The notes under the pieces: generated by a model | Databases searched by the model: none | Seen by the model: only the letters and a program-made list of their open reading frames with translations | What the model was told of the DNA's origin: nothing | From: Psammoneis japonica | Lineage: Eukaryota | Assembly: GCA_008632985.1 (NCBI GenBank) | Contig: QPGO01000017.1 | Coordinates: forward strand, 682,001-746,000 | Length of the DNA: 64,000 nucleotides | Direction: 5' to 3' | Part shown: piece by piece, positions 1,051 through 41,233 of the stretch | Layout: each line of letters starts with the position of its first letter | Position numbering within the stretch: the first letter of the stretch is position 1 | Made by a program: the position numbers and the translations under genes

Positions 1051-1084
1051 AAATGGCAGTGAGTTCAGCCTCAGCCTGTCACCT

Positions 1085-8010: not shown

Positions 8011-8081
8011 TTAGTGCAGTGTCAATGCCTTCTCATTTTGGACTGAAATGATGTCAAAACTTGCCGGAGACCAAACACATT

Positions 8082-16100: not shown

Positions 16101-16986
16101 CCTTGGGATCCACTGGGCAAGTCATGGCACCCAAACTGCAGTCCTTGAGATGCTTCATGACATTCTTCTCAAAAGTTGCAAGGTCTCCCTTTTTCTTAAA
16201 CTTGGCAGAGAGTTTAGATGCATGCCAGGCCTTGCTCTTTTGGGCAGAAGAGACATGGTGAGAGTGGCGCTGATTCGGGACGTTGGATTGGGGGTGGCAG
16301 ACGGGTCCAGCCAGGACCAATCAGCCTTGGGTTTCCCACCAGTCCAATCCACTTTTTCAGTGGTGCCAACAGAGGCAACTCCCCCCATCTTGGGAGCCTT
16401 TGGCTTGCGGACTTTTGTCTTTGGTGTTGCTGCAGCTGCCATTGCAGCCATGGCCTGAAGGGCACAATGTTCATTGTCCGTCATGCCATTGCCTGCGACA
16501 GACTCATCATCAGAATCGTCCGGACAATGTCCCAGATCTGGAACAGACTCATTGTCCAAATTGTTGGGGTCTTGAGGAAGTGGATTATCTTCTGGCAGAG
16601 GTTGTTCCTCAAGCAGCAGGTTTTCAAAGTTCTCGGGGTCCTCAGCCATGTCCGACAGTGTGCTTGAAGCTGTCAAGTCGGACCAGTCATTGGGGACGTT
16701 CTCAATCAAAGAGTGCAAGCTTTGAGAACTCTCTTGGGTCTCAGGAGGGCCACGGGGTGGAGTGGGGCCTGAGATGGTGCACGTGCAAAATCAACAGCAA
16801 ACCTTCTGGAAGGACCAGGTCTTCAGCTGACGGAGTCAGGCGCAGCACTTGACATCAAGAGCGCGGAGCGTGGCTGGAGGGCAGCGCTGCCACTGGTGTC
16901 AAAGCCGCAGACAGTTGCTCCAGTCTGGGCATCCCCAAATGGAATCAAAGGAAGGTGTTGAGTTTCCCCAATTGGGCGAACTGACC

Positions 16987-17388
16987 AGTTGAAGCTTGCA
17001 CGTGCGCTGAGCTCCGAGTGCCTTCCCAACGAATCGACCGGATGTCCACTCCAGACCGACACCTCAGGCAGAACACAAGCAGAGGGCATCTGCCAATGAG
17101 CAGCAATGAGTGTCCAGTCAAACAGTCTTCACAAAACCACCAGTGACCAAATTGTAAAAGCTGCCCAGACTGAATCTGGTGAATGCACCAAATTTGGGTT
17201 CATCCATGCACTTGTGCTGCTGGAGACTGGCACAAGCTTCAGGGTCAACCACTTCCACAACAATCATCCAAGTGCTGCTGAACCAATCTGTGGTTGGTCC
17301 AACATCCATGCGATGCCTGTGATCCCCAAAGCAGCGTCTATGATCCTCAAAGCACGCAGCTTCTGAATCGAGTCGACGTGGCGCAAAA
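16987..17388 (-). repeat. 5' LTR (partial) of the same copia
   Basis: Direct repeat of ~9715-10105. A TGG PBS-like sequence is adjacent on the minus strand. Homology stops abruptly in an A-run at ~17388. Confidence 0.7.
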
Positions 17389-17391
17389 CAC

Positions 17392-17489
17392 TCTCCATCG
17401 TGAGTCTGTGGATGGACCGGGGCCGGTGTGCGAAGCGCGCGCGGTGCGGTCGGTGCATCGCATGCGGCATCATAGACTCACGATGGAGA
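17392..17489. repeat. 19-bp inverted repeat (candidate Helitron subterminal stem-loop)
   Basis: tctccatcgtgagtctgtg ... catagactcacgatggaga; one mismatch, at a TA/TG site. Confidence 0.8.
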
Positions 17490-18047
17490 CGAGAGTGTGC
17501 AGTGGGCCGGCGCGAAAAGAAATGGAGAATTGGTTCCTCCTCTTTTAGGTGGAACTCTCTAGATTGAAGTCTGAAACCGAAAGATTTTGGATTGCCGCCC
17601 TTGCTGCCATCAGAAAATAGAGCCATGACGATTGCCTGCACCAATCATTTTGCTGCATTTTGCGCCGGGCACTCGAATTAATCACAACATGTGACGGTTG
17701 TTTCGGTGCGCACTTTTGCGCGACCCACGCGACATGACTGACACGCGCCAGTGCGTGGTGCTGGTTGTTTTGCTTCTGACCGTTCTGTCTTCTGTGAGGT
17801 TTCATGAGGCTGTCTGTGTGCATTGATGTTGTCTAGTTGTGCATGTTGATGTTGTCCAAGGCAAGCTGCGTTGGATTAAGTGAGTGTGGAAATGTACGAA
17901 ATTTACGCATTGTTGCAGTTTCTTTGCCAAATGGTTGGTCCTCATTTGTGGCCACACTCAATCCGCGGCGGCTTGAGTGAAAGTCCATGTGCATGCATTT
18001 TGCGCATTGATGCGGTTGTCTTTGCTAAACAGCCATTTGCAATTTGC

Positions 18048-18518
18048 TCAATTCCATTCTTTCTGGCCATGCTTCTTCTGAAGGGACTTTGCTTGCTCCT
18101 TCTCCTGCTCCGCCATCTCCTCCTCGGTGAAAAATCTCCCCGACCGCTGTGGAATCACTGCTGCACATGCAGCCTTTAGCTCCTCCATGGTTGAATCATC
18201 CTTGGGCGCGACTGTTGTTTCCACATGATGACTGTCCACTGTCGTGTTGTCTTGCACAAGCACAGAAGTGACATCAAAATTTCCCAAAGCAAGGTCAAAC
18301 GCCGCTCTTGCTTCTTCCAAGGTAATCTCCTCTTCGTCTTCCTTGTTCATCAATGACTGAAGAAGTTCCGCATGTGTCTGCACCTTTTTCTTGTCCTCAC
18401 CAGTTTTCTTTGGCTCATCTGCCTTCTTTGTTTGTTGTTGCAAATCCATGTTTTCTCCATTGCTACGTTTTCTGTGACGGTTGCGTTCGCGTTTCTTGGT
18501 TTGTTGGTTAAAATCCAT
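18048..18518 (-). CDS. Hypothetical charged protein downstream of RepHel
   Basis: 156-aa ATG ORF rich in K/E/Q; no recognisable domain. Confidence 0.35.
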   Translation of the reverse strand: MDFNQQTKKRERNRHRKRSNGENMDLQQQTKKADEPKKTGEDKKKVQTHAELLQSLMNKEDEEEITLEEARAAFDLALGNFDVTSVLVQDNTTVDSHHVETTVAPKDDSTMEELKAACAAVIPQRSGRFFTEEEMAEQEKEQAKSLQKKHGQKEWN

Positions 18519-18664
18519 TCGACGTTGTGTGACGTGTGTGTAGATTTCTGCGCAATGTGCTGATCTAATCGAAACATTTTATTTTACGAAATTTCCGCAT
18601 TTTTACGGTTGGGGTCGCCAAACAGTTGTGCAGTGGTTGAGCATCCTAATCTCATGTTTGCGTG

Positions 18665-21600
18665 CTACATTGACATTTCTGCGTGCTGTTGCTGAGAAAA
18701 ATGCGTGGCGCTTCTCTCCTTCATGAGTCTCATCAAGGCTTCGTGGCCTTCTGGGACCTTGCATTTTTGCAGGTCCTTGCTTGGTGGCTTTTGCATGAAC
18801 AGCCCTTCTCTGGTCTTTACTCTGGAGAGCACAACATGCACCCAATTCTGAGGTAGCTCCAAGAGTGTACAAANNNNNNNNNNNNNNNNNNNNNNNNNNN
18901 NNNNNNNNNNNNNNNNNNNNNNNNNNNNNNNNNNNNNNNNNNNNNNNNNNNNNNNNNNNNNNNNNNNNNNNNNNNNNNNNNNNNNNNNNNNNNNNNNNNN
19001 NNNNNNNNNNNNNNNNNNNNNNNNNNNNNNNNNNNNNNNNNNNNNNNNNNNNNNNNNNNNNNNNNNNNNNNNNNNNNNNNNNNNNNNNNNNNNNNNNNNN
19101 NNNNNNNNNNNNNNNNNNNNNNNNNNNNNNNNNNNNNNNNNNNNNNNNNNNNNNNNNNNNNNNNNNNNNNNNNNNNNNGACCTTGTCAACAGTGGCTTGC
19201 GTTCCGTTTGCTTGACCGTTTGCGGCATTTTCGTTGAAAGGTGTCATGACTCTGCATCCTCTGTAAATTCGTAAGACTGGATCCATTCTTCCTGATTGCA
19301 TGACAACGTCTCCTTCACCACAGTTGTTCCAGAAGCTGTTGTAAACCGGAAATGGTTGGTAGAGTCTCGTGCCATTCTGCACCTGCAAGTCGTCACTGAA
19401 AATCAACATTGAGTCAAGGATGTCTCCATCTCTTCTGTGCAGTGTTTTTACTCTTTTTTCGAATGGGCCAGTGCCAATTGCATCTCTGTCCTTATTTGCG
19501 TGCATGGCACAGCGGAGGTCACTGGGCAGATCATCTTCGTTCTGAACTACTCGTTCGTTGATGTGCTCCACATCGTCAACTGCAATCTCACCAGTGCGGA
19601 ATCTCTTGAGCAGTTTTCCCCATGATGGATCGTCTTTAAACCTGTGCACACCACGAAGTTCCATGCAGCAGTTGATCCACTCGTGAAACTCGGGACATGC
19701 ATCTTTGCATGGTGGTTTCACTCCTTTTCCGACTGGTTCTAGTTGCCTGAGGTCACCTGCGAAAACAATGTTCACACTGCCGTGCGGCTTGCTCAATTCA
19801 CTCTTCAACACTGTCAAATTCTCATGGAGTTTTTCTAGTTCTCTCTTGCTTGCAAAAGAAATCTTGTCTGCCACCAAAAGTCTCGTGTCTGACCATGCTT
19901 CAATTTGCTCTTCGGTCATTTGCTTTCTTCTCATGAGGCATGCAACTCGGTGGATTGTGCCCCCTTTGAGAATGGTGGCAGCCACTCCGGTCAGTGCAGT
20001 TGTTCTGATTGTGCTTGTTGTGAACGGCTGCTCAACAAGCGAGCAACACTCTCTTCCGTGTTCCACGACGAGGTCTGTTGTGGTTGATTTGCCACTTCCA
20101 CCTGCACCATGTAAAAAACACACAAGTTGCAATGTTCTGCGTCTTTGCACTTCCACGAGTTTCTTCAATCGGCAAAGGTTTGTTGCGAATTCATGTCTGC
20201 CATTTCTCCTGTCAAGTCCATTGCGTGACGTCTCGTCTTGAAGAGCGTCTTGACAGCAAGTGAGCACAAAGGTTCCTGCTAGAATTTCAAAGGCACGCTG
20301 CTGTTGCCCATCCAGTCTTGCTTTCCTGGCCCAGTCTACGACACTTGCTGCAGATCCGTTTGCTTGACGCACATCGACGTGTTCTTCCAAACCTGTTGTG
20401 TCCTCAAACGACCTTCTTGTTCTTTGCGTTCTAGTCAGTGTCACTCGAACAACATCGTCTCTTGACAGTGGTCTGCTGTGGATGTGTTGTTGCACTCCTT
20501 CATTCTGGTCTTCCTTGTCGGTGTCATCGCCGCCCTCTAGATTCTCAAAAAGTTGTCATTCATTGACCTGGCTTTCCTCGTTTGGTGGGTCAGTGTGCAT
20601 GTCTGCCAAGCATTTGCAACCACCCATGTGTGAACCTTTCTGTCTTGCACGTTTGCCACTCAAATGCGCAGGAACAACTGCTTGGTCGCTCAACCCAATG
20701 TCATCGTCTTCTGGCTGCTCTGCCATTTCTTCCAAGAGTGCATCCAGCAGTTGACCCTGAACGGCGCCTGAAAGACCTTCTTCCTCGTCACTTTCGCAAC
20801 AGTCAAACGCAACGTCAGCAGGTCTAAATTGCTCTGTTTTTCTTTGCAGATCGTCAGATGTACTTTTGAGACGAAGGCAGTTGGACTTGGCATCCTGCAG
20901 GTTCTGCAAGAAGTTCAAGTTTTCCTCTGCAATGACACCGGCTGCTGCGGAGAGTTGGAATTCACGCAGGCATGTGTGGGTTGTTGGTTTGAGTTCCGTC
21001 ATTGTTCTGTAAGGCGCAAACAAGGCCAATGCCAACTTGCAGCACAATTCTTTGTCCAGTGTTGTTGGTTGCTGCGGGTTCACAAGGCAACTGCCAAACT
21101 TGGCTGCATCAGGAAAATCACACTGAAGCACTTTTAACAATCGCGGTTGCTGTCGCTGTCTGACACCTTGAAGAAACTCATTCTTTGTTGAATCACAAGA
21201 CGGGTGCCTGTGCGCTCTGTCATCGAACATCATCATGCCGTGTTCGTTTTTCCTTGTGTTGCGAAGAACTTCGCACTCACTAAAAAACGCAAACGGACTG
21301 AGATTCTCCAGTGCTGTTGGACGACGCAGGCAGTGCAAGGCCTGGCATTGGAAGAACGGTGTGTCGCCAAAACAGGCTACAGTCGCAGACACTTCGTCTC
21401 TTTCTAGTGTGCTGATAATGTCTTTCAAGGGGCACCATGCGGTCAAATGAGATTCGATGAAACGGCTTCCGTTCCTTGTCATGTAAGACGCAAGTGGTGG
21501 TCCAATGACGTTCGTCTTGTCATGCGAGCAAGCACCCCACATGAGACGTCTGATTGCTTCCGATGCATCAGATGCGTGTTTCCGTAATTCCGTCGCTATC

Positions 21601-24314
21601 CTGTTCGTAGTTCGAAGCACTTCGTCGTACGATGCAGCATCATCTTTCTGGGTGTCTTTTAGGATGTGCTCAATCGTGTGTTGAGCAGACGGTCCAGGCA
21701 TCAACAAAGCAATGTTTGTGTTGCATGTCAGTTTTGATCTGCTTGTTGCAGGGCACGACACATTTTGAAAAGCATCGCACTTTCTCCTCTTCGGAACAAC
21801 TTCCTTCACGTGCCGACACGCAAAAGTCCCATCCCAGCTGAACCACTTTATCTGAGTGTCATCTGCGTTCCTTGCCAAATTGTTTGGACACGAAGCAGCT
21901 GGTTGCCTGTGACGGCAGTCACCTAGTTTGAGCTCCTCTCATTTCCTTTTCCTTGACAGCGCGTCCAGTTCCTCGTGTGGGGTTTTTTTACGCATTTTAC
22001 GTAACTCCGCGCATTTGGGAAAACACGACTTCGTAACGTGCATGTGATGGTTGTAAGCTGCGTCCGGCACATGTGCCTCTATTGTCCCTTGCGGACCACT
22101 TCGCTGGCATTGTACACACATTGCTTTTAGTCGCTTTGCATGGTCATCTGGATGGCAAGTCAGGCCAGGTGCACGGTGCCGTGACTGTAAAAAGCTTTCT
22201 ACAAACTCGACGTTTGTCCAGTGCTTGGTGCAGTGACCACAACAAGCAAACATTCCGTTCTTCGACTGCTGGCCGTCTTCATGCCTCAGGTTTCTTAGCT
22301 GTTGGTCGTCCACTGCTTTTGGAGAGGTGCGATGCATTTTTGGCACTGTGCAGTCATGATCGAATGCTTCGCGCAACGCGTTGGGGCTGAAGTCCTCGCT
22401 GCAGATTAATTCCGTGCTGCAGATCTTCTGAACTGTGTTGGCAAGGTACTCAGCACCTTCGCGTCGGATCTGTCTCATTGGCGAATGCAGTTTCTCTCTT
22501 GCATTGTTGATCGATGCAAACCAGATCTGCATGTGTCCGTGTGCTGTTGGACGTCCCTGCTCCTCAACTGCGGCTAAAAATGCGGCTGGCCTGCCAATGT
22601 AGAAGTTAAAGTTTTCTCTTGGTTGGTTGGCACTCAGATCCCAACCCACTGCCTCTTCCATTGCAATGTCAAACAAGCACTCGAGTGCAAAGGCTGTTAG
22701 ACCGGGAAACTTTAGACGTGGTTCATTACGTTGCTTGGCCCTGCCAGCAAGAATTTCGTCCGTCAGTTGTGTCACGTCTTCGTTTGGGTCCAGGATGACA
22801 CCCGAGTGCAGTTGCACAAGAAACGAATTTGCATCGTCCGGACTGACGGTTAAGAAAATGCCACCCTGACCAAAATGATGCTGACAAGTTTCGGCGTTTC
22901 TCCTCATTTTCTTTGCTGCTTCGTCACTGTGTGGCAGAGACGCAGATGCAACGTCGAGTGTGCGCAAAAAGTGGTGCCCGAGTCCACAATCTCTTCTCTC
23001 GCCCAAGTTGCGATCACAAACAGCTCCATCCACATCGTCCACTGTCAGTTTGTTTGCAAACTGTGCAGCCTGATTCTTGTCCCTGACTTTCCACCCTGCG
23101 CTCTGTGGCATCCTTTGCTTCATTGTCAAGTTGCAGCATGTTAACACGAAGAGCTGCTCGTGGAAGTGAGGCTGGGAAATCCGTGCCAAGTGGTCGGCAC
23201 AGTGTGCAAGGTTGGTGCTGTCTGTGAGACTTCCGTCTTTCTTCACTCTCGTCTCATTGATTCCTCCTCTGCCAAAAGGAAACTGCAGCAGACACGCGTT
23301 GATGAAGTTGTTGCCTTTGAAATCACTCGCAGATTCTTTGGACAACTGTGCTTGCACCTCTAAATCAAATCCGTTGGCAGCAGCTTCGTGCACAAGATCT
23401 TTGAAGCAGTCCAGGTTGCGCTGACCACCGGTCGCAGGAGACATGGTTCCATCAGGAAAGCAAACACGAAATGACTCTGAGGTCTCAATGTTCGCATTTT
23501 CTCCTTCTTCTTCGCCGGTGCTGTCGACAAGTGCGGGATTCCACAGATTACGCCTGGCTTCGTCTAGATTTGTCTGTTGGCACACCCACTCTTGGTCATG
23601 GCACAACAGCCATTCCATCGCCCTCAGCATGCAGTGCGTCCTAATTCTGTTCTTTGAACGCGCAAGTTGTCTTTGCTCCGGAGTCATCTTTCCAGTCATC
23701 AGTGCAATCACATTCTGATGTAAATTCAGTGCATCGAAGTGCACAACAGTTCTTACGATGCTTTGTGTCTTGACTTTGTAGCGTGTCAGACTTCCCTGAA
23801 GCTTCTTCTGTTTGCCGCCAAAGTGACTGAAGCAGCACCCGCATGTTTTCACTGGTGTGAGCATTGCCAACTCCACTTCGGTTGGAGACAACAGTTCGTG
23901 CGGCGGGGTGCCGAAACAGCAGTTGTTCGCTGTCGCGCACATTGGCACAACGGCTCTTCCCAGGCTTCTTTGGCATTCGCTGCAGCAAGTGAATCCATTG
24001 ACGCATCGTCTGTCTTCCTGTGCTGCGCATTGGGCGCGGGGAGAAAGCAGCAGGTCTTTGATCCAATCAGCATCTTCATGCTCTACAGTGCAGCAGGACT
24101 TGAAACGATCAGACACGCTGTTCCAGTCTGAAGGGGTGAGTGAGTTTCTTGCTGATTCCAATGTTTCGAGCAGCAAGCAGCAAACTTCTCTGGGTTTCAG
24201 CAGAACGTCACAGACTGAACATGCGTGTGGTCTAAATTCTCTGTCTCCATGCAGACAAAGCATCTCAAACTTTCCATTGATTGCGTTGCAAACACGGGAG
24301 TTGGCCTCATCCAT
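18665..24314 (-). pseudogene. Helitron RepHel (HUH Rep + PIF1-family SF1 helicase), ~1880 codons with two in-frame TGA stops and an N gap
   Basis: ORFs 24314-21939, 21878-20556 and 20495-> are in one frame, separated by single TGA codons (likely CGA->TGA). N-terminal CxxC..P..ANN..G..P.EL..TEVE segment, LQFPFGRGG; Rep motifs FLTVSPDD, VEEQGRPTAHGHMQIW, QHTIEHILK (cf. YxxxY). Helicase motifs GAGGSGKST, LLVADKISF, FAGDLRQLEPV, VHRFKDDP, NGQANGT and, after the gap, WVHVVLSRVKT. Confidence 0.92.
18874..19178. other. Assembly gap (305 N)
   Basis: Run of n inside the helicase. Confidence 1.
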
Positions 24315-24399
24315 TTTAATTTAAGCTGACACTTTGACTCGACAAATTTCAAGAAGTCACTCAGCAAAAACAGTTGTTTTTTCGGTGCGATCACCGTGA

Positions 24400-25082
24400 A
24401 GCTGCGATCGGTGCCATCCAATCACCACAGCGATGTGTGTTTTCTCGCCACCTGCAGCACTGCGACTGGTGTCGTCCAGTCACCACAGTGGTTCTGTCCA
24501 GTTGATCAACGAACCGCGTCGGTGCTGCCCGCTCACCGTAGCACTGTGTCGTCTTCTCACAACCTGTGCAATCAGGTCGCTGTGAGCACTGCGACTGGTG
24601 CTGTCCAGTCACCGCAGCCGAGTTAATCAGTTGCTTGACGAACTGCGTCGGTGCCACCCGATCACCGCAGTGTTGTGTCGTGTTCTCACAACCTGTGCGA
24701 TCAGGTCTCTGTGAGAGCTGCGACTGGTGTCGTCCAGTCACCGCAGCTGAGCTTGTGCGTTGTCTCACAACCCACGTTGCGAGGTGCAGCGCTGTGTTGT
24801 TTGCTCACAACCTGTGCAATCAGGTCGCTGTGAGAGCTGCGACTGGTGTCGTCCAGTCACCGCAGCCAAGTGAATTAGTTGCTTGACGAACTGCGTCGGT
24901 GCCATCCGATCACCGCAGTGTTGTGTCGTGTTCTCACAACCTGTGCGACCAGGTCTCTGTGAGAGCTGCGACTGGTGTCGCCCAGTCACCGCAGCTGAGC
25001 TTGTGCATTGTCTCACAACCTGCGTTGCCAGGTCACTGTGAGAACTGAGAACTGCGATCGGTGTGGCCCAATCACCGCAGTT
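24400..25082. repeat. Tandem array of ~129-bp units built from three imperfect hairpins, upstream of RepHel
   Basis: ctgcgactggtg starts at 24460, 24589, 24718, 24837 and 24966 (spacings 129/129/119/129). Confidence 0.9.
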
Positions 25083-25236
25083 GGATGCTTTTCGTTTCCC
25101 TTTGCGCAAAGGTTCTGTCACAAAAAAGTGAGACGAAAGTGTGCCTCTTTCACCTCGACGGAAGAGTGACGTGTGCGTTCCTCCCACGTCCTTCTTCGTA
25201 CCAGACGTGCGACATCCCACTTAGTTTCGTCGACGT

Positions 25237-25340
25237 TGAACATCCCATGGGATGAGATTTGGATCTTGTTCAAGTTGTTTCGACCATCTGCTCTGAACAT
25301 TCCATGGGGTAAGATTCGGATCTTGTTCAAGTTGTTTCGG
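25237..25340. repeat. Two-copy 57-bp tandem repeat with internal palindromes
   Basis: tgaacat.ccatggg.t.agatt.ggatcttgttcaagttgtttcg at 25237 and 25294. Confidence 0.85.
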
Positions 25341-25884
25341 CAATCTTGGTGGTGGGCGCAGCTTTACGTAAATTCCGTAGAATCACGCTTTAACGAGTGG
25401 CGGGGCAGTTGAGTTAGTCGTGTGGCAACAACAATGCGATTGACGTCATTCGTGTTTCCAAAGTGCACGCGAATCCTCCAAATGGGTGATGGGCCCACCT
25501 CAGCTAACTGCCGGTGCAGCATGCAGTGACAGCGATGGCGTCGACCGTTTGGCGACTAGATTTCGTGTGCGATGGCCGCGCGGCAGTGACGGCTGAAATG
25601 CACACGAAGCACGGACGGAATTGCACGTGATTTTACGCATTTTCAGTGAACTTGGCAGACTTTGCGTGCTCCGATCCTTGCATCTGTTTTGTTCAAATTG
25701 AACCCATGCACCACTTGCAAGTGCTGACACCTGGAAGGTCACTTTGTTGCAGTTCGACGTGTTTGAATCTGGTTGCTGACGTTGCCAGTTCTCCTTGGTG
25801 TGATGCACGCAGCTCTCTGGGTCTTTCTTGGCACTTCTGAACGATCGCACTTTTTGTTCCCATAATTTCTCTCCGACTGATTTG

Positions 25885-26757
25885 ATGGCACGCAAAAGAA
25901 ACACAACGACCTCCCCGGCTGCGAAAGCCAAAGTCGCCGAAACCAAACAGAAGAAGGCAAAGACGAAGTTTTCTGATGCTCTGTTGAAGAAACTAAGTCC
26001 GCCCCGCAAGACCAACGGCTTGACCGACGACGACCTTAAACCGGAAGACTGCCTTGCCAAGCACGGGTTCAAGCTTTCCAAATCCGCCGGTTCTGATGAT
26101 GGCAGCCATTCCGACAAGGACGCTCTCCTGCGCTGCGCCACCGTCACTGTCGGCCGCAAGAAAGGCGTCGTTTTTCGTCTCCAAGCCAAGAATCCCCTTT
26201 TGACCAATGTTTGGTCGGAGAAGGTTCTGTTTGACAACCTTCGCAGCAGGACTCCGTGGGCGGTTCAAGTCGGATTCCACCCTTGTGCTGGCAGGTGGGT
26301 TCACGAGGGCGAGTTGCAGACGAACGCCAAGAACTGCGCCGTGCGTCTCTTCTTCATCTTCCTCGAAGAAGTCCCAACCGATGCCAAAGTGCGCGGCCTC
26401 GGGAAGCACATTGTGAAGCAGCTGAACGATGACCCTGAGAACAACACCGAGGTCTTCATTGAAGACGACTTCTTCTGGATGAAGGATGCTGTTTGGTCCG
26501 AAGTGATCGGCAACGAGGCGGCGCTTGCCGAGCTTCAGAAGGAAGGTGGTCAGTTTCACATCGGTTGGTGTGCCCAAAACAAGAACTCACTTCACAGTCA
26601 CTTCTACAAGGGGTCGTTGCCTGTGGAACTCTGTCGTCTCATTGGAGCTCCGGCAGAAGAAGCTGGAGAAGAGGCCGACGATGATGTCGAGCTCAACTGC
26701 GAAGTTGACCTGAACGTCGATGACGACTTGGTGCTTCAGGACAGCGACGAAGACTGA
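25885..26757 (+). CDS. Hypothetical cargo protein with Lys-rich N-terminus and acidic C-terminal tail (TpA-mutated)
   Basis: Open 290-codon ORF MARKRNTTTSPAAKAK...EEADDDVELNCEVDLNVDDDLVLQDSDED; GC3-rich codons; followed by a poly-T run. Confidence 0.65.
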   Translation: MARKRNTTTSPAAKAKVAETKQKKAKTKFSDALLKKLSPPRKTNGLTDDDLKPEDCLAKHGFKLSKSAGSDDGSHSDKDALLRCATVTVGRKKGVVFRLQAKNPLLTNVWSEKVLFDNLRSRTPWAVQVGFHPCAGRWVHEGELQTNAKNCAVRLFFIFLEEVPTDAKVRGLGKHIVKQLNDDPENNTEVFIEDDFFWMKDAVWSEVIGNEAALAELQKEGGQFHIGWCAQNKNSLHSHFYKGSLPVELCRLIGAPAEEAGEEADDDVELNCEVDLNVDDDLVLQDSDED

Positions 26758-26845
26758 GTTTTTTTTTTTTTTTGCCGGTGCAGTGTAAATTTGCAAATGT
26801 TTGGCAAACCAAGTGTCGATTGCAACTCAGCTTTCCTCTGTCTCT

Positions 26846-27781
26846 TCAAGTGTGTGCCATCTCCGACGACAACTTTGCGTTGCCGCGAAGCAATGGCGAA
26901 TTGAGCAGAGTAACTAGCGTGTGACGTCTGGCACAGTGACAGCAAAAAAACAGTTCAGTTGAGTTCTTAAGCAAAATTGGCCATTTCACGACGGGCAAAC
27001 ACTTCCGTTCCAAGTGTGTCGGAGTGGGACGTCGCATGTGCTGGCTGGTTGACTGAGAAGTCTCCTCTTTCTTGGTGCACTTGTGGAAGACAAGATGTTT
27101 CATGTCTCCGCTGTGCCACAAAAAGTCGCCATCATGGCAATCCGCCGTGAAGGACTCGCACATCCACTCTCCCGCGTGCGACGCAAACAGCGGATCTAGC
27201 GCCACCACCACGGTCCCAGCACGACACAACTTCGAAAGCATCGCCTCTGCCTTCTGCTGTGTGTTCTTGTCGTCGACCATGCGGGAGTTGCAGTTGTTGA
27301 AGAACACCTTGAGTCCTTTCTTTTTCCACAAAGGAGCCAGCCTCTTGTCCAAGAATGACTTGTTGATCAACTCCAACCCGCCGTTCGAGCGAAGGCCAGC
27401 ATGATGAGCCCAACGTGCAGCCTCTTGGTGACGATCGTGGTCGGCCTCAATGCTCACCACGGTGCAACGGCGACAAAGTAACTTGAGCCCGATGCTGGGT
27501 CCGGCAACTCCCCCGCCCATGTCGACAGATGTGTCGCAGGTGTGATTCACGCCAAGAAGGCGTTCGTTCAAAAACACTTCGCTGCTCAAAGTGAAGCCAA
27601 CTTCGCCGCCGTGCGAAGATCCACTTCCGTCTCCGGAGACACGCCTGCTCTGGAACGCGGAGTCCGGAGCCGTTTGAAGACAAAACTCCCTGACACTTCT
27701 GTGATGATGGTTCATCGCACCCAACCTTGTGGCAACATCAACCTTGCTTGCAGCGGGGTCGACCAGACGTCGTGTTTCCAA
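26846..27781 (-). pseudogene. DOT1-like class I SAM methyltransferase (H3K79 methyltransferase family), TpA-mutated
   Basis: Motif order matches Dot1: (Y/H)GGE, DTSVDMGGGVAG (cf. DTFMDLGSGVG), VSIE, KSFLD (cf. KSFVD), VFFNN (cf. ILVNN), KAEAMLSKLCRAGTVVVAL (cf. KVEKILQTAKVGCKIISL), DFLWHSG (cf. VSWTHSG). Confidence 0.7.
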
Positions 27782-28126
27782 ACCAAACTGTGACGTGCGC
27801 AGAATGCGTAAAATTGCCGTCGCGCCCTCTGCACGCGCGAAATTTTCAAACGCGGCGTGCCACCTCTACCTGCGTGTGGAGCGACGCACGAAGTCATTTT
27901 AAACAGATGTGCAGACGCGTTGAAATGACAAGACGCCTTTAGGCGGTAAAATTTGTTTTGAATCTCGGCCTGCTTCTCAACGTTGCCGCACTTGCATGTC
28001 CGTGTAATTCAAATGCACGAGCTGGCACGGCACGTGACGCACTTCTACGCGAGAACTCGCACTGAGATTGCCGTGGGATGATCCTCCCTCCGCGGAGACA
28101 AAAACAACGCGACAACACTTCCGTCA

Positions 28127-29596
28127 TTGCACTTTGAAACACATTTCAAATTGAGACACACCATGTCGCAACTGCCTCGTGCCTCGCTGCGTCGTCCCAC
28201 CAACGACAAGCACTTGTCGCGATTGAGTTGCAGCCGGTCTCGACAGTGTGGGGGTTTGGGACGTGCAGCTTGCAGCCCGACAACAAGCAAATGCTTCTCG
28301 CGATTGGGTTTCGACCCCACTCCCCTGGAGTCCGCCGGTCCCTGTCAACAGAGTTTTGCTTTGGGTGCTCTTGAGGCAACGGAAAGCAGACACATCTCTC
28401 GATCAGGTTTTGACCCCACTCCCCTGGAGTCTGCCGGTCCCTGTCGACAGAGTTCTGCTTTGGGCACTGTTGAGACGACAGTGACAGTGTCAAGCAGCGG
28501 AGCATTTGCCGGCAAGTTCGCACACACGTTCTCTGCGAACACCGCATCATCAATGCGCACCAGGATGTGCGAGAACGTGTTGAGGGCTCAACCGCCACTT
28601 CGCAAGGCCCACCGCAGCCGCAGGCGAATCCGCAGCCGCGCCAGTGGGAAAACATCCAAGATCACTTGCCTCGTTCCACTCGCACCGTGTGCCACTGAGA
28701 GTCTCTCCGCACACTGCGTAGCCAACCGCACTCTAGTTTACAACGGGGGCTGCACTCAGCCTGCACCACCTTGTCTTGCTGACATTGACTTTGCCGAATT
28801 GGCTCCTCTGGTTGTCTGTGACCCTGTGCTTGATCTGAAGCCTTTCTTTGGCTTGGACGGTTGCCGCTGCGACAACACCTGCACCCTGCTGCCGCGTTCT
28901 GCTGTGGTGTTCAGCTCCCCCAACCCAGCAGAACTGGTTGCTCAGTGCCGAGTGCTCGAAGCACTGGAATGCTGCACTGCCCAGTCCACCGTGCGCAGCA
29001 AACAACGCGTTACCTTCATGGAGACGGACAGGAGCAAGCATTCCACGATTGGCCTGGCTGCCACGAGGGACGCTCGAATTTCTTGCAAGCAGCCTGGCAC
29101 AGCCGACCAACACACTCACCACCTCACCAGACTTCTTTCACGCATGGAGCACCTTGTCAATGAGTGCGTGGACCATGCCATCCTCAAGGGCATCGCTCGT
29201 GTCAAAAAGTTTCACAACTGGAAATCCCTGGTGCGGTCAGATGGCATTTTCTCCTCTCTGGCGGCTGGGCGCAATGTCTTCCTCAACGCCCATCGGGACC
29301 AGGACTTCTTCCTGTCAGTGGTCACCGTGGTGGGAGTCCCTCCGTCCGGCAGCTGCACCATGAATGACGGGATTGTGGCGCACTTCTGCTTCCCCACCGA
29401 AGGCATCTCCGTTGCACTCCGGCTTGGTGATGTCATCATTTTTAACCCCACCAAGCACTGCTGCATCTTCAGCAGGACAAACTCAAACGACGAGTTCTTC
29501 TGCGTGTCTCTCTGCCTGAAGAGTGCTGCAGTGGGCAAGAATGACAATTCAATCCCCCTTTCTCTAGAGGAAGAGACCATTCTCAGGCGACTGTGA
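28127..29596 (+). pseudogene. TET/JBP-like Fe(II)-dependent dioxygenase (DSBH domain in the C-terminal third), TpA-mutated
   Basis: NVFLNAHRDQD (HxD); FCFPTEGISVALRLGDVIIFNPTKHCC (FP..G..V.L.xGD..IF...H pattern); SLCLK (cf. S.Y). The true start codon is uncertain. Confidence 0.62.
28297..28475. repeat. Two-copy 99-bp in-frame tandem duplication in the 5' part of the dioxygenase ORF
   Basis: GFDPTPLESAGPC occurs twice; the copies differ by reciprocal TG/CA (gatTGgg/gatCAgg, ggTGct/ggCAct). Confidence 0.85.
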
Positions 29597-29818
29597 CAGT
29601 GCAAAATAACTTGCTAAATTTGCGTAAATTTGCTGACTTTCTGTGCTCAGGCGACTGTGCAGGCACCCACTAATTTGCTGGATTTGCGCAAATTTACCGA
29701 CTTTCTGTTCTTCCTCGTTCCCATTTTTCGAACCACAACTGGGGCCATGCCTTTCCAACTAATGCTGCAGTTTCACTGAAAAACACCAACACACTGTGCT
29801 GCTAATTTACAGAGCACA

Positions 29819-31355
29819 CTACACGGCAAACGTTTTGCCAGACGCAGAGCTTCTCCCCCCCGACTTGGGGAGTAGACGCGATTTCTTCTTCCAATTCATG
29901 GCACCCGACGTCACCTTCCTCTTCTTCTTCTTCTTCTTCTCCGATTTGTCCAAGTTGCATCTGCAGAGAAATTCCTCCCTGGGCATGATTCGCTTCGTGA
30001 CTGCCAAGCACCCGTCGTTGTAGAACTCGCAGTTGTTGTCCGCGTGTTGGCTTGCCTTGATCTTCTTCTTGTCCTTGAACGACTCGGTGGCATCATTCAC
30101 GTGGTGCATTCCGAGGTAGAGTGGATGGGAATTCTTGTTCCCTGGACCGCTAAAATCAAGCGGTTTTGGCTCCACTGTGACACAGCAGCCCTCGCTGTCA
30201 TGGATGGTGGAGCAGCACACGCTGTGGTCTTTTCCAAACTTGCTGTCGTGGTCGTGCCACGAGCAGCTCCTCGTCGTACCGGGCACCCTGGGGCCCACGT
30301 AGATTCCAACCGTGCTGCCTTTCTGGAACTGGTGCAAGGCAAAAAAACCAATGCCTGCGCCCCTCCGTTGCGATGCGCGCAGCTCGCCCACCTCCACCTC
30401 CTTGGGGCCTGCGGAGCGAACGGACTTTTCGAGGCAAAACAACACAGGTTAAGTGACACGGCGCCTCATCCAAATGTGCACACTTCTGCACTTACTCTCT
30501 TCACGAGATGGACCAGTGCGAGTGACCACCCCGCTTCGAAAGCCTCGACGGCGGTCTTGAACACTTTGTTGCTCTTTGGCGTCAAGTCTGGGATGCCCCT
30601 CTCGCCGACTTCCGTGCGGTGCCTCCACACCCACTTGTGGTGTTCGCCGTGAGCATTTGCGACGGCTTCAGGGTCGCTCCTGATGCACCCCAGTTCTCCC
30701 AGCGCGGGGAACCAGAAGTCGGGATCATTCGGCGCATCCTTCATCAGGCACATGGACTCCTGGAATTTATCGGATTTTTCGTGCCGCAACACCCAGTCCC
30801 ACAAGTCGAGTGACGGATCGTTGGGGTCCGGAAATTGCTTTCCTTCTTCTTCCTCTTCTGCCGTTGCTTTCGCGACCACTTTGGCCGCGGGCTTGGCTGC
30901 CTCCTCGCTTTTGCCGCTGCAAAAAGGCAGGACCTCCGGTTTCACAAAGGTGGCCTGATCACCCACCAACTCGATCTTGCAACCGGCCTCAAGGAGCTGC
31001 TCGGCGGTGCAACCCAGCTGCTGTGCTTCATTCCAACCACAAATTTGAAAGGTTGGCTCCGGCGGCACGGCTTTCTCACTCTTTTCAGTTTGGGACTGCG
31101 CCGGCTTCTCCGACATCCTTGCGCGTTCGGACTCGACGGACACACCCTCGGCACTTCCCTCGGCGCCAAGTGCAGTCATGGCAGCTGCCGCCGCGCCTTC
31201 GGCGCCCGTGAGTTCTGCCATTCGGCACTTCCCTCGGCGCCAAGTGCAGTCATGGCAGCTGCCGCCGCGCCTTCGGCGCCCGTGAGTTCTGCCATGACTT
31301 CCGGAGCTGCTGCATCCTCTGCTTTGCCAGACGCAACGATGTTGTCCTCCGCCAT
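29819..31355 (-). pseudogene. SET-domain protein (SET at ~29930-30400; low-complexity N-terminus, frameshifted)
   Basis: GAGIGFFALHQFQKGSTVGIYVG, YLGMHHVND (cf. RFINH), NNCEF, AVTKRIMPREEFLCRCN (cf. ATRDI.PGEEL..Y). Upstream ORFs 30466-31221 and 31176-31382 are out of frame. Confidence 0.7.
31149..31295. repeat. Perfect 74-bp tandem duplication
   Basis: cggcacttccctcggcgcc...gagttctgccat at 31149 and 31223. Confidence 0.9.
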
Positions 31356-31819
31356 TCTAGCACCGTGATGACAGAGCTGCACTCACTGCTGTGTGGTGTG
31401 CTGCTTTGTTCCAGCCGTTGGCGATCCACATCCTTCTGCGCACGCAAACGTGTGACACTTTGCACCAAATTCCACGTAGTGCGTCTGCACCTGTCTGCGT
31501 CCGTCTTCACTGCTGTGCGCACTACGGCACTGCAGCGCACCCTTTCAAACCTTCATCAATGTTTGTTTTTTCCTTCCTTTTCCTTTTCTCTTCTTCTTCC
31601 ATCTGGCTGGGAGGAACTGCTGGACAGCCGGCCTCATTTCTCGGCATGTTGCCACGCAGAAATCTGCTGACGACCGGTCTGTCCTCTTGGAACGAAAAAA
31701 GGCCCTTCTTGCGACAGTGACAATGGTGTTCAGAACCGTGAACCTGGCAAATGCAGGCACAGGAGCACGTCAATTGACAATGTTGGAAGACGCAAGAAGC
31801 ATTGCACAGTGAAAAGCTG

Positions 31820-31847
31820 GTCGATTTTGGAAACAAAATCGACTTTT
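31820..31847. other. Perfect 10-bp stem hairpin with GAAA loop followed by TTTT (candidate far end of the Helitron)
   Basis: GTCGATTTTG-GAAA-CAAAATCGAC-TTTT, roughly where CpG-rich sequence gives way to CpG-poor sequence. Confidence 0.5.
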
Positions 31848-33672
31848 GCACAGATGCCAAAAGGCAGAGGACAGACCGGTTTTTCACTTGCAGTCGTGTG
31901 GTGGCAGGGCCTCCACTCTAGCCACAGCAGCTCTGGGGCCCCCAGCTGCTGGAGTAGAGTGGACCACCCAACAGTGTGGTGCACCTCCAGATCATGGGCA
32001 AAGACTTCTTTCAGCAGGGAAAAGCACCAATCAAACTCTGTTGGTGCGCGGCTGGTTCTCACAAAAGGAGCAGAAACATGGCGGGGGAGGAGCGCAGGAG
32101 TCAATGCATGCAGCGGCTCTGCACACACATTGAGCATGAGAAAAGGAAAAATGCACTGGTGTTTTAGGAAAGTGCAGCATGGCAGGGCTTGAGCCGACCA
32201 AGTGGATCCACATCTTTCCTTCAGGAGCCACTGCTCAGCAAAAAAAATCAAAAATGAAGCTTGCCTTGAGTCGATGACTGAGGACAACACACGTGAGTTG
32301 CTGGGGTGTGTGCTGGACAGTTGTTCCATTGCATTTGTTTGTTGTGCTTTTGAAAGCTGGGTGGGCTGTTTGACAGCTGCTGGGTTGCTTGCACACATTT
32401 GCTTGCAGCTGGGTTGCTCAAAGCAAGTGCCGCTCATGTCATCTTTAAAAGTCCAGGAGAAACAATGAAAGGACACTGTCTGTCAGCTCCATTGCACCAC
32501 CCTCGATGCACCTTGTTGCAGGCACAATGTGCAGATCAAATGTCATTTTGTCACATCCAAAATGGAGCCAATGTGTGGTCTCTTTGGCGCCACTGTCTCA
32601 GAGGCTGTTGGCGAGATGACGCCGCAGGAGTTGGAGCGTTGTTGTGAACAATCATGGAAAAGTGTTCTCTGTCATGTTCCACATTGCAAGGGTGAAGATT
32701 TACAAACCAGTGCAGCTGGCACAAGGCTTGAGAAACAATCAAATGAGCACATGCAAGAACAAACAAGCCATTGCTGCCTTGTTTTTGGGGTGCTGCACTC
32801 AACACTCACTGTGCGATGTGTGCTCCGCTCACATTTCAAAAACATTGTTGGCAAGTGCAGCCACAGCCACAGCAAATTCGCTGAAAAACAATTGAGCACC
32901 GCTGGTTGTGGAAAAAGACATGTCAAACACATTGGGCGGCATGCTGTGGAGCACAGAAGGCTGTTGACAAATGATCATGGTTGCCAAGCAACGTCTCAGC
33001 CAGAGCAGCCAATTTCTTCACAAAAAAGTGCCAGATGCAAGGAGACAGGTGCAGAGAGCAAGAGGCAACTGTGGCTGTGTGCTGCACTGTTGGCTCATGT
33101 GTCTGATCTGGCCACTTGCAGTTGACAACAGCGGAGTTGATGCAAAGCAAAGTTCATCATGGCAAAAGGCTCGTTGCGCTCAATGTTGTGTTGTGCTTGT
33201 TTGTCAATTCTCATTTGCAACCACAAATTGAACTTGATCTTTTGCACCAAATCATGGCCAACAAAAAAATTTTTAAAAACAGCAGTCAAGATCCCAATGA
33301 AAAGACATGCGGCTGCTCTCAAACAAACACTCAAGTCATTCATGCATGTCATGTGTTGTGCTGTCATGCATGAAACACAGTTCCACAGTCAGGTTGTCAT
33401 TTTCCTGTCATTTTGTTGGGCAGAGGCCCCTGCACTTTGACAAATGCCAAGCCACAAAATGAAATTTCACATGTGCACTCATGCACTTCACAGCAGCAAC
33501 TCTTGTTTCACCACAGTGTGCAGAGCACATGTGCGTGTGGCTGGACTTTTGTCTCTTTTGCAAGGCCTGCATTTTGGCCACACAGCTTGTGTGCATGTCC
33601 ACTCAAACTTCAAATTGGATTTAACGCCAGCCACTCCCGCCATCCAAAACTGGCTGTCAGTTGATGACAAAC

Positions 33673-33780
33673 TGCAGCGGGCATCCCTGCCGCAGCCGAC
33701 GTTGATGTGCATCGCTACGGACAGCCTGCAGACACAGGAAAGCAGCATCAATGTCGGCTGTGGCAGGGATGCCCACTGCA
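33673..33780. mobile_element. ~104-bp MITE with ~33-bp TIRs (Tc1/mariner-like); inferred TA TSDs now read TG and CA
   Basis: tg|cagcgggcatccctgccgcagccgacgttgatg ... catcaatgtcggctgtggcagggatgcccactg|ca; 3 transition mismatches. Confidence 0.65.
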
Positions 33781-34480
33781 AAACCTTGCTGTGTTTTGAC
33801 ACAGCAATGAGTGTGGGCATTGTGTTGCCTCCGTGGTTGTTCCAAGAGATTGCCAGAGAGCTCATCCTTCCTTTCCCTCTGGTTTGGAGTCTCCTTGCAC
33901 TTGAAGCAAAGCTGCAAGCATCCTCAACAGCATTTGCACACATGCTGCAGGAACCAAGCAGCACACCACTCCATTTTGCAGTGTTTCTGGAGCAGCAACT
34001 TGAGCAGCAAGTGCTGCAACAACACTGAAAAGCTCAAGTGCTTTGCTTGTGCACAATTTTCTCACCCTGCTTGAACTCTTTCAAATGATGTGGCTCTTTC
34101 TTTTGTGAGTGGAGTTTTTCAGGGCTGGCTGCATCATGGTCAATTTGAACAAAAATCTGGACCTTCATCAAACACGGCACACCAGCTGAAACATTGAGAC
34201 AGCCAACAATGTGGCACGGCAAGGCTCTTCTTTCACTTTTTAGCAAGCAGCACTCCAACTGACCAGACAGGCACCACACCAGGGTCAACCAGCAATGCCC
34301 ACCACTCCTCAGCCCTGTTTTGTTGTTCTCACATCAGAGGAGGGAATGACAAATTGCTGCAGCTTGCAGCACCACTCTGCAGCACTTTTGGAAAGTCTGC
34401 AATGAAGCCAAACAATCCACGGGATTTCCCAATTTAAGAAATGCTGGGCTTCCACTGCCCAGCCAACCTGGAAGGTTTTC

Positions 34481-34718
34481 TGACAGGATTTGAACTTTAC
34501 CGCGCACAGTTTTGTGTGCTTTAGTTCCGCGCGTTCGCGCACGATGCAGTTTGCTTTCGAGCCACAAGGCTCACAAGAACAATGACAGCAGCCCGATTGT
34601 GCCGACTCACATGTCTTTCGGCTCCTGCAATGGTCTCTGAGCGGAGACTCATCTGCTGTTTAGACAGCAGTGAGGAGTCATTGTTTGAATTCTTGCCATT
34701 TGCCTTCAATTTCTGTCA
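34481..34718 (+). repeat. 5' LTR (238 bp; lacks ~38 bp present in the 3' LTR)
   Basis: Aligns with 41234-41509. Confidence 0.93.
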
Positions 34719-40700: not shown

Positions 40701-41233
40701 TGGCAAGTTCGTCACTGCCACCCACTGTGTCGATGCAAACTTGCACCATTGCATGCTCACCGGATGCTCTGTCATGGGAATGCTCCACTTCCTCAACAAA
40801 TTTCTGGCTGATTGGTTCTCTAAGAAGCAAGCCACCGTGGAGACTGCGACCTGTGGGTCTGAATTTGTTGCTGCAAGGACTTGTGTCGAGCAGATTGTCG
40901 ACCTGCGCATCACCCTGCGCTGCCTCGGCGTCCCGATCCGTAATGTCAGTTGCATGTTTGGTGACAACAAGTCGGTTGTAGACAGTGCCACCATCCCGCA
41001 CTCCAAGTTGCACAAGCGACACACTGCACTGTCGTTCCACCGTGTGCGTGAGGCAATTGCCTCTGGTCACCTTGAGTTCCACTTCATCGAAGGCTCCCGC
41101 AATCCTGCTGACATTCTCAGCAAGCATTGGGGTCACTCCCAAATCTGGGACCTTCTCCGCCCCCTCATGTTCTGGAACTTCATTCCATCCGAAGCAGAAT
41201 CTGTTTCTGTGACTCCTCAAGCAAACTGGGGAG

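Follow-up and report, generated by a model that had tools for sequence, protein, structure and literature searches.

Earlier work by Iyer and colleagues, in PNAS in 2014, is said to have dealt with transposon-encoded TET/JBP dioxygenases of fungi. Fungal TET/JBP genes borne by transposable elements (TEs) have since been described for 11 lineages of DNA transposons, Plavaka and Helitron among them (PMC12730594). In that account, proteins of the same TET/JBP fold are carried by several unrelated DNA transposons (Kyakuja/Dileera/Zisupton, Plavaka, EnSpm, Helitron and others), one oxygenase clade occurs with different transposases, and the proposed role is escape from silencing by 5-methylcytosine (5mC). 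Among algae, the giant Plavaka transposons of red algae carry a 2-oxoglutarate (2OG) oxygenase accessory gene, PAG3; such accessory genes can pass from one TE family to another, and captured 2OG oxygenases are also known in Helitrons (bioRxiv 10.1101/2025.02.11.637652). Here, we analysed a stretch of 64,000 nucleotides from Psammoneis japonica (contig QPGO01000017.1 of assembly GCA_008632985.1, positions 682,001 to 746,000; hereafter the window), in which one open reading frame (ORF), at 28163..29596, is likely to be a decayed copy of a DNA-transposon accessory gene. The gene would encode an Fe(II)-dependent dioxygenase of the TET/JBP superfamily and would belong to a large, divergent and unannotated clade found in diatom-like sequences.

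Such a kind of gene is known from fungi; the novelty lies in the clade, which is of diatom type, in the elements that accompany it and in an apparently rewired pocket. The host is diatom-like, whereas the available text of PMC12730594 contains no mention of diatom, algae or stramenopile. Unlike the fungal transposon genes, the clade of the window is missed by the Pfam Tet_JBP model, has the Arg of its last strand replaced, and is accompanied in part by two classes of large proteins (c4 and c9, see below) that lack a Pfam family. A literature search, with subscription journals outside its coverage, returned no paper describing transposon-borne TET/JBP genes in diatoms. PAG3, which is likened here by its description, is likewise a 2OG oxygenase accessory gene on algal Plavaka-type elements, but it has a ParB-like N-terminal domain and a methylase/SET partner gene according to the available text (bioRxiv 10.1101/2025.02.11.637652), and such partners were not found at the loci studied here.

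The ORF is the sole copy of the gene within the window by tblastn. A preliminary description of this DNA, which had been made from the letters alone, let the gene begin at 28127, that is, 36 nt upstream of the ATG; its end at 29596 agrees with ours. The motifs it had pointed out are real: HRD is present (H377-R378-D379, at 29291-29299), FP..G..V.L..GD..IFNP corresponds to residues 410-429, FNPTKHCC to residues 427-434 and SRTNSNDEFFCVSLCLK to residues 437-453. That description was confirmed only in part, as it had assigned the distal His wrongly. The parts of the ORF are as follows (position 1 is the first letter of the window).

28163..29596, plus strand: decayed TET/JBP-like dioxygenase ORF, ATG at 28163, TGA stop at 29594-29596, 477 codons (translation)
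28285..28479, plus strand: tandem duplication of two 96-nt copies, 83% alike, residues ~41-106, N-terminal and outside the conserved domain (repeat search)
28685..29593, plus strand: conserved catalytic region (residues 175-477), whose model shows a double-stranded beta-helix (DSBH) with N-terminal helices and strands
29291..29305, plus strand: H377-R378-D379-Q-D381, the HxD iron ligands and a near-invariant second Asp (homologue columns, alignment with phage Tet_JBP, codons verified)
29456..29461, plus strand: H432 (CAC) and C433 (TGC, 29459-29461), C433 standing in the invariant distal-His column
29474..29476, plus strand: R438, a conserved basic residue at the distal-His column +5 and a candidate stand-in for the Arg that binds the co-substrate (column counts; role predicted)
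29495..29521, plus strand: last beta-strand, F445-F-C447-V-S449-L-C451-L-K453 (model strand 272-277, column counts)

To collect relatives of the protein, 1.84 billion cluster representatives were searched exhaustively with HMMER, which yielded 677 at the cut-off of E ≤ 1e-3; of these, 369 reached E ≤ 1e-10 and 5 reached E ≤ 1e-30, and the best one showed 43% identity (E 4.4e-64). A word-indexed protein search gave one relative from the single protein and two from the alignment. Among 10 relatives that were looked up, the named one was an 'unknown protein' of the diatom Seminavis robusta. A language-model search, taken as a lead only, pointed to diatom clusters and to a phage cluster with Tet_JBP in 32% of its members. 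A scan of viral contigs found no relative, and in PHROGs only the unannotated family phrog_24024 was hit (7 of 10 members). For comparison, the WDR55-like host gene of the window (54343-55719) had its best named matches in the diatoms Fragilaria, Fistulifera, Cylindrotheca, Epithemia and Ditylum, with ~45-55% identity. The window therefore belongs to a diatom-like genome without near relatives among the sequences of that collection. The clade is a large, divergent and unannotated TET/JBP branch in diatom-like sequences.

The window protein was aligned with 144 homologues, and this alignment of 145 sequences (A2) was the basis of both the structural model and the column counts given below. A single-sequence AlphaFold model was useless, with a predicted local distance difference test score (pLDDT) of 33.8. 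With A2, AlphaFold2 modelled residues 175-477 with a pLDDT of 90.8 and a predicted template modelling score of 0.89; since the alignment drives the model, it depicts the family more than the copy in the window. When the model was compared with the PDB by Foldseek, CcTet, CMD1, TET2 and NgTET1 ranked first (E 1.1e-8 to 4.4e-6), and plant and bacterial 2OG oxygenases came next (E ~1e-5). VIA-align gave Z scores of 16.5 for TET2 (247 aligned residues, root-mean-square deviation 3.8), 14.1 for CMD1 (246 residues), 13.7 for NgTET1 and 12.7 for CcTet, followed by the AlkB homologue OsALKBH1 (11.1) and by other oxygenases below it. TET2, NgTET1 and CcTet, which act on 5mC or 6-methyladenine in DNA, share with the family the DSBH core and the HxD...H motif at a sequence identity of 10-12%; the family lacks their Cys-rich and CXXC domains.

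A second line of evidence came from phages. A tblastn search of phage genomes with one relative gave a weak match in Methylophilales phage Melnitz, to a 328-aa protein which is encoded beside an HhaI-like cytosine methylase and scores 43 bits with Pfam Tet_JBP (cut-off 34.9). The alignment A2 matched this single protein by hhalign with a probability of 94.8% (E 5.5e-8, 151 columns), and a set of five phage proteins with a probability of 97.8% (E 1.3e-12, 138 columns, among them those of both His). Each of the five passes Pfam Tet_JBP, the best with E 1.1e-29. These proteins (Methylophilales phage Melnitz, Nonlabens phage P12024L and others) are the closest ones that pass the Pfam Tet_JBP model, and some of them adjoin DNA methyltransferase genes. 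Thus, family profile and predicted fold place the gene in the TET/JBP superfamily, as the preliminary description had suggested: the leading structural matches are all TET/JBP enzymes acting on DNA bases, with no oxygenase of another substrate class ahead of them, and the profile match is to phage Tet_JBP proteins.

Several results weigh against this assignment. A Pfam scan of the window protein returned nothing at E ≤ 10, and Pfam Tet_JBP (PF12851) matched 16 of 80 relatives at E ≤ 1, the best with E 0.0023 and none at threshold. HMMER searches of the sequences of solved structures, made with the protein alone (phmmer) and with two profiles (A1 and A2), found no TET protein, the protein alone giving nothing and the weak matches being to unrelated proteins. 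No recognised DNA-binding domain and no informative fused domain was detected in the 15 longer relatives. Moreover, the conserved D381 of the family lies four residues after the first His, not five, the position that reads the base in known enzymes. Alternatively, the family might consist of 2OG oxygenases acting on RNA, protein or a small molecule, with a likeness to TET at the level of the fold only. The lack of a DNA-binding domain would fit this, structures of AlkB-family, prolyl-hydroxylase and plant oxygenases match as well (Z 8-11), and weak Pfam matches in the same 80 relatives were to Cupin_2 (19) and PhyH (5). Nevertheless, we regard such a substrate as quite unlikely: the four top structures all belong to DNA-base TET/JBP enzymes and align over 198-247 residues, beyond the DSBH core alone, the profile match is specifically to phage Tet_JBP proteins, some of them beside DNA methyltransferase genes, and carriage by transposons parallels the fungal TET/JBP genes.

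The catalytic triad expected of a TET/JBP enzyme is kept in the family. His occurs in 144/144 homologues at column 377, Asp in 142/144 at column 379 and His in 144/144 at column 433; both His columns align with those of the phage Tet_JBP proteins, and HxD is aligned to the HxD of the phage proteins. The D381 column has Asp in 142/144 homologues, and further near-invariant columns are N371, R420, S436 (139/144), Y451 (135/144) and K453 (140/144).

The co-substrate region is atypical, which the preliminary description had also noticed. In TET2, NgTET1 and CMD1, the last strand reads Arg-x5-aromatic-x-His/Arg, and the C5 carboxylate of 2OG is bound by the last-strand Arg, R1896 in TET2 and R289 in NgTET1, 2OG being held by R1261/R1896 and R224/R289, respectively (PMC7854593). 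In the phage Tet_JBP proteins the corresponding segment is H...R-x-S-V-V-x-Y, after an HxDxGD motif, whereas the diatom-type family has HxDxD and the last-strand consensus [VI]445-[YF]-C447-x-S449-x-Y451-L-K453. If the register is anchored on Y451, the site of the Arg is column 445, where Val (59) and Ile (40) prevail and no basic residue is common; single-sequence hhalign puts the phage Arg on column 444, which has Asp (64), Glu (24) and Lys (9). The five-sequence profile alignment ends just short of the last strand. The Arg position is uncertain by one residue, and the pocket assignments rest on the motif register. On either register the canonical Arg of R-x-S is, judging by the aligned columns, absent from the family and replaced by Val/Ile (or Asp/Glu). 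What had been noted as a missing Arg in one protein is therefore a feature of the whole family. It is the second 2OG-binding Arg of TET2 and NgTET1 (R1896 and R289) that has no counterpart in the family. By contrast, the column of R438, five residues after the distal His, is basic in 120/144 homologues (103 Arg and 17 Lys), and R438 probably supplies the co-substrate charge instead of the canonical Arg.

Among characterized enzymes, CMD1 of Chlamydomonas reinhardtii (PDB 7cy4-7cy8), the second-best structural match and an enzyme with the HxD...H triad, provides a comparison for this region. Its last strand, Ser-x-aromatic-x-basic (S414, F416, R418), resembles S449-x-Y451-x-K453 of the family, and in both the usual Arg does not bind the co-substrate (PMC7854593). 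CMD1 keeps an Arg at the canonical site, R410, which points away while W358 blocks the pocket (PMC7854593), whereas the family has Val/Ile at this site and the conserved Arg at His+5. CMD1 is also a host gene and not transposon-borne. Use of vitamin C is a feature of CMD1, and nothing in the present analysis shows that the family uses it.

From these columns we propose that the co-substrate pocket of intact members would be rewired, with a hydrophobic residue in place of the last-strand Arg and R438 giving the charge, and that the co-substrate would be either 2OG held in a different way or another compound. Intact members would bind DNA and oxidise a modified base that they have flipped out. 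The likeliest substrate would be 5mC, and its oxidation would lift the methylation of the element, as proposed for the fungal transposon-borne TET/JBP genes. It has been reported that diatoms silence young TEs through 5mC that depends on DNMT5a (PMC9998398). By analogy with the fungal genes, intact relatives probably oxidise 5mC and thereby counter the DNMT5-dependent silencing of young transposons. Since the canonical Arg has given way to Val/Ile, a new Arg appears at His+5 and the metal motif is HxDxD, a further idea is that intact members use a different co-substrate (compare vitamin C in CMD1), or make a novel diatom base modification that shields or marks transposon DNA against 5mC and TpA-directed defences; we consider this unlikely.

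The association with transposons was examined in a metagenome scan with a 10-sequence alignment as query, which found relatives encoded at 274 loci, the best 80 of which were used. ORFs of at least 100 aa were clustered for 46 loci of at least 4 kb together with the 16-36 kb part of the window. The tree of the oxygenases contained 46 rows including the window, with one locus (L017) left out as it had no TET-like ORF in the cluster. A large neighbour class was present in 34/46 rows: a Helitron Rep/helicase in 9 (window included), a Plavaka transposase in 6, Plavaka together with a class named c15 in 1, c15 alone in 3, the class c4 (~1200 aa) in 10 and the class c9 (~1400 aa) in 5. The other 12 had none, and some of these have short flanks. 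Pfam matches of the neighbours were DUF6570, Helitron_like_N and PIF1 at three loci (L050, L016 and L001) and Plavaka at another (L010, E 6.5e-16). Partner type was clustered on the oxygenase tree, with 14 changes against a mean of 28.7 after shuffling and 0 of 200 shuffles as low, a statistic that is inflated by near-identical rows. Linkage to Helitron requires at least 5 changes on the tree, which implies that the gene has moved between transposon lineages. The oxygenase of the window groups with the Helitron-linked gene of locus L001 (SH-aLRT branch support 86).

For the proteins of classes c4 and c9, neither a Pfam family nor any profile similarity to the Plavaka group was found, and for c4 the language model offered sub-threshold leads only, to Plavaka and Transposase_21 (scores 0.83-0.89). 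Large Pfam-less proteins lie beside the TET-like gene at L055:1101-4868, L034:4204-8502 and L021:2017-4368 (~1250, 1430 and 780 aa, respectively), and one Pfam-less class carries C..C pairs and a WSDSF motif. The three large Pfam-less neighbour classes may be undescribed transposases. One clade of loci also has, antisense to the TET-like gene and overlapping it, a conserved ORF of ~200 aa (L016:8730-9344, and at the corresponding position in L012, L014, L015, L017 and L020), which probably just reflects conservation of the sense frame.

In the window itself, a broken Helitron is found near the TET-like ORF, within a block that stands out by composition (observed/expected ratios, O/E, of the dinucleotides).

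20559..24320, minus strand: Helitron Rep/helicase remnant, ORFs 21942-24320 (793 aa) and 20559-21938 (460 aa) (Pfam, clustering)
17001..32000, no strand: compositional block with the Helitron remnant and the TET-like ORF, TpA O/E 0.18, CpG O/E 0.85 (1-kb windows)

The ORF at 21942-24320 matches Pfam DUF6570 (E 1.9e-9) and Helitron_like_N (E 6.3e-8). The ORF at 20559-21938 clusters with Rep/helicase proteins and has no Pfam helicase match, the remnant being broken and mutated. Both cluster with full-length Rep/helicase proteins that stand beside the TET-like gene in related loci. The remnant lies 3.8 kb from the TET-like ORF on the opposite strand, in the same divergent orientation as in the related locus L016. 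In contigs of one sequencing run, 499 pieces matched the region 27900-29800 and covered all of its 30 bins; 168 of them had at least 99% identity, 169 had 95-99%, 128 had 90-95% and 34 were below 90%. Two further runs of that sample contributed no pieces, and no RNA run carrying the stretch was listed. From these pieces we infer that the sequence is a multi-copy repeat in that genome. Two caveats apply to this setting: the 17-32 kb block is defined by composition, and the ORF may, but need not, lie inside the Helitron; and what is known of the other copies derives from a single run of one sample, possibly the assembly's own source, whose contigs give no copy number.

The four long flanking ORFs, 25804-26754 (plus strand), 26849-27865, 29822-30448 and 30469-31356 (all minus strand), had no Pfam match at E ≤ 0.01, and nothing corresponding to them was found at E ≤ 1e-6 in the 46 related loci. 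At E ≤ 10, the single match among the four was fn3_6 for 29822-30448 (E 0.024), and a comparison of 29822-30448 and 26849-27865 with the PDB gave nothing meaningful. These frames may be spurious products of TA-poor DNA. A likeness of the flanking ORFs to SET and methyltransferase proteins, seen by eye, was unsupported and has been dropped.

Three further structures were seen in the block. Between the Helitron remnant and the TET-like ORF, at 24402-25080, nine copies of a 29-nt motif stand in tandem inside larger 246-nt repeats; tandem repeat arrays also adjoin the oxygenase accessory gene in the red-algal Plavaka elements (bioRxiv 10.1101/2025.02.11.637652). Inside the ORF 30469-31356 there is a perfect tandem duplication of 74 nt (31148-31295, 100% identity), which is much younger than the other duplications of the block. 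Just past the Helitron ORFs, an assembly gap of 305 N occupies 18874-19178.

Although the family keeps its triad, the copy in the window does not. In three alignments, the invariant distal-His column holds Cys433 in the window. The preliminary description had named the adjacent H432 as the candidate distal His, which does not hold: H432 is not in the family's His column, and at position 29457 the other copies have G instead of A at a depth of 1141.9 out of 1464.2, turning codon 432 from CAC into CGC (Arg). H432 looks like a CpG-to-CpA change private to the window copy. At 29459-29461 (codon 433) no variant was listed among the other genomic copies in the contigs of that run, so that Cys433 appears to be common to most copies.

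Further near-invariant columns are changed in the window, namely Y293H, Y407H, Y451C, S436F and P421L. Tyr is found at none of 303 residues of the domain and at one of 477 residues of the whole protein, against 3.2% in relatives, and Cys makes up 5.7% against 2.7%. Eight columns are Tyr in at least 30% of homologues; the residues found there in the window are C, C, C, H, H, F, F and L. The ORF contains 6 TA dinucleotides in 1431 nt (TpA O/E 0.09). The other copies read TAC (Tyr) at codons 23, 197, 398 and 451, CGC (Arg) at codons 37, 136, 169 and 432, and at codon 279 GGC (Gly, as in the consensus of the family), and the codon differences between window and other copies comprise 15 nonsynonymous and 3 synonymous ones. 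The terminal branch of the window measures 1.45 substitutions per column, the median being 0.12. The distal His and all Tyr of the domain have been lost through TpA-to-TpG/CpA and CpG-to-TpG/CpA changes, with no sign of purifying selection. The window copy is probably dead, as far as its residues can tell, and would do nothing.

It could be argued that the window copy is still a working gene, which has kept its frame and its HxD motif and uses Cys433 or the adjacent His432 as metal ligand. Three observations count in its favour and thus against decay: the frame is open through 477 codons while each of the other five has 7-15 stops; 22/26 strongly conserved columns are intact, with H377, D379, D381, R438 and K453 all present; and 9/123 relatives have as many mismatches as the window or more. 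The open frame is weak evidence of function, however, because TA-to-TG/CA changes make no stop and, of the CpG changes, only CGA-to-TGA does; both processes therefore seldom close a frame, and 9 CGA codons are left in the ORF. The His that has become Cys is invariant in all 144 relatives, codon 432 encodes Arg in the other copies for most of their depth, three near-invariant Tyr have been replaced along with S436 and P421, and the codon differences run 15 to 3 in favour of nonsynonymous ones. In CMD1, the metal-ligand mutants H345A and D347N were fully inactive (PMC7854593). A gene still at work in the window is thus decidedly improbable, and we keep to the reading of a decayed copy.

The changes that destroyed this copy are part of a signature which extends over much of the window. 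TpA is depleted as follows.

whole window: TpA O/E 0.20, CpG O/E 0.59
1-16.9 kb: TpA O/E 0.06, CpG O/E 0.16
17-32 kb, Helitron/TET block: TpA O/E 0.18, CpG O/E 0.85
34-41 kb, Copia-like block: TpA O/E 0.13, CpG O/E 0.81
43-46 kb: TpA O/E 0.02, CpG O/E 0.14
54-57 kb, host-gene block (WDR55): TpA O/E 0.59, CpG O/E 1.01
58-64 kb, host-gene block (CLU): TpA O/E 0.54, CpG O/E 1.00

TpG and CpA have O/E of 1.4-1.9 in the TpA-depleted blocks. The segments 1-16900, 32001-34000, 43001-46000, 48001-53000 and 57001-58000 show TpA O/E of 0.02-0.10 with CpG at 0.14-0.49 and TpG/CpA at ~1.7-1.9. A Copia-like remnant at 34001-41000 (weak RVT_2 match, ORF 38779-40137) is depleted in TpA and has nevertheless kept its CpG; as the Helitron/TET block is also TpA-poor with CpG kept, the two kinds of mutation are not coupled in every element. 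Two segments between heavily mutated blocks, 42001-43000 and 46001-48000, have near-normal TpA (O/E 0.40-0.79) and are probably unique sequence spared by the mutation process.

The comparison of the window with the other copies yielded 30 difference events, 26 of which were TpA-type, CpG-type or TG<->CA doublets. In 11 events a CpG elsewhere was TG/CA in the window, and in 1 the reverse; 7 were TG<->CA doublets; 5 had TA elsewhere and CA/TG in the window, and 2 the reverse; 4 were other changes. The doublets imply that an ancestral TA was struck independently in different copies. Four pairs of tandem duplicates inside the block had 5 doublets and 5 TA-type changes in 50 events, and the two 96-nt copies inside the ORF (28285..28479) differ by 3 TG<->CA doublets, 4 CpG-type and 6 other changes. 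The TpA-to-TpG/CpA signature is genuine, and it is limited to repeats.

If modified T or A were miscalled in sequencing, the TA-poor sequence and the Tyr-to-Cys/His changes would be artefacts and the true gene would be intact. The extreme depletion (O/E down to 0.02) is compatible with this, and so is the fact that the run carrying the stretch derives from one sample, possibly the source of the window's assembly. Such an artefact is, however, extremely unlikely. Sampled 31-mers of the stretch occur exactly in the contigs of that run in 45% of cases; the differences are specific to copies, as TA is retained in other copies at 5 sites that are TG/CA in the window and replaced by CA/TG at 2 sites that are TA in the window, which argues for independent mutation and not for systematic miscalling; and CpG decay accompanies the loss of TpA, while host genes are unaffected.

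The signature looks like repeat-directed TpA-to-TpG/CpA hypermutation of the kind known from Bigelowiella natans, where it was measured in integrated viral DNA and an ADAT2-like adenine deaminase was proposed (bioRxiv 10.64898/2026.01.13.699255). The two have in common the specificity, the confinement to DNA that is foreign or repeated and the long-term depletion of TpA with enrichment of CpA and TpG. A literature search on TpA depletion in diatom transposable elements, with subscription journals outside its coverage, returned unrelated papers only. The depletion in the window is deeper (O/E 0.02-0.18 against ~0.45 in the viral region of B. natans according to the available text), and the window adds CpG decay in some blocks.

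The preliminary description had suggested that the enzyme itself may be tied to this signature. In such a scenario, T in TpA would be converted into 5-hydroxymethyluracil or 5-formyluracil, either by the family or by an intact paralogue located in another part of the genome; the product would pair with G and so cause T-to-C changes on either strand. JBP acts on thymine. An action of TET on T is also cited in PMC7854593, and gene and signature share one window, where TpA O/E is 0.02-0.18 in TE blocks against 0.54-0.59 in the two blocks of host genes, TpG/CpA stand at 1.4-1.9, and the 30 copy-to-copy events include 7 doublets and 7 changes between TA and CA/TG. In spite of this coincidence, most of the evidence points the other way. 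The best 80 of the 274 related loci, which belong to other organisms and carry the family, have ordinary TpA (median O/E 0.635, range 0.45-0.83). Within the window, depletion is strongest in blocks without any copy of the gene (1-16.9 kb, 32-34 kb and 43-46 kb). The copies in this genome seem to be without the distal His, no variant restoring it at codon 433 having been found. In TET2, NgTET1 and CMD1, an Asn/Asp five residues after the His reads the cytosine N4 (PMC7854593); the near-invariant D381 lies near this site that reads the amino group and disfavours thymine, by the same argument as was made for D350 of CMD1 (PMC7854593). The like hypermutation of B. natans has been put down to an ADAT2-like adenine deaminase, and the available text of that source makes no mention of TET (bioRxiv 10.64898/2026.01.13.699255). 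Finally, a transposon gene that destroys its own carrier would be hard to maintain. We therefore regard it as very unlikely that the family, or an intact paralogue acting in trans, causes the TpA signature.

A related suggestion, that the enzyme had erased 5mC to protect its own element and that retained CpG was the trace of it, fares no better. The Copia-like block, which is without the gene, has a like pattern (TpA 0.13 and CpG 0.81, against 0.18 and 0.85 in the Helitron/TET block), so the argument from retained CpG is not specific to the element. Taken together, the preliminary interpretation is partly supported: a TET/JBP-like protein with an atypical co-substrate region is indeed present, whereas the tie to TpA is unsupported.

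With 677 cluster representatives unseen by Pfam, the family is found on Helitrons, on Plavaka elements and beside other unnamed large proteins. Its altered co-substrate pocket frames a biochemical question, namely whether 2OG is bound otherwise or whether another co-substrate is used, as in CMD1. The window also illustrates how a host mutation process, TpA to TpG/CpA, erases tyrosines while the reading frame stays open. Thus, an open frame is no evidence of function in such genomes, which calls for caution in their annotation. The transposon-borne TET/JBP genes of fungi have been described as stripping the host's silencing mark from mobile elements. If the same is true of the family reported here, this arms race would extend to diatoms, a major group of marine algae that silence their transposons with 5mC.

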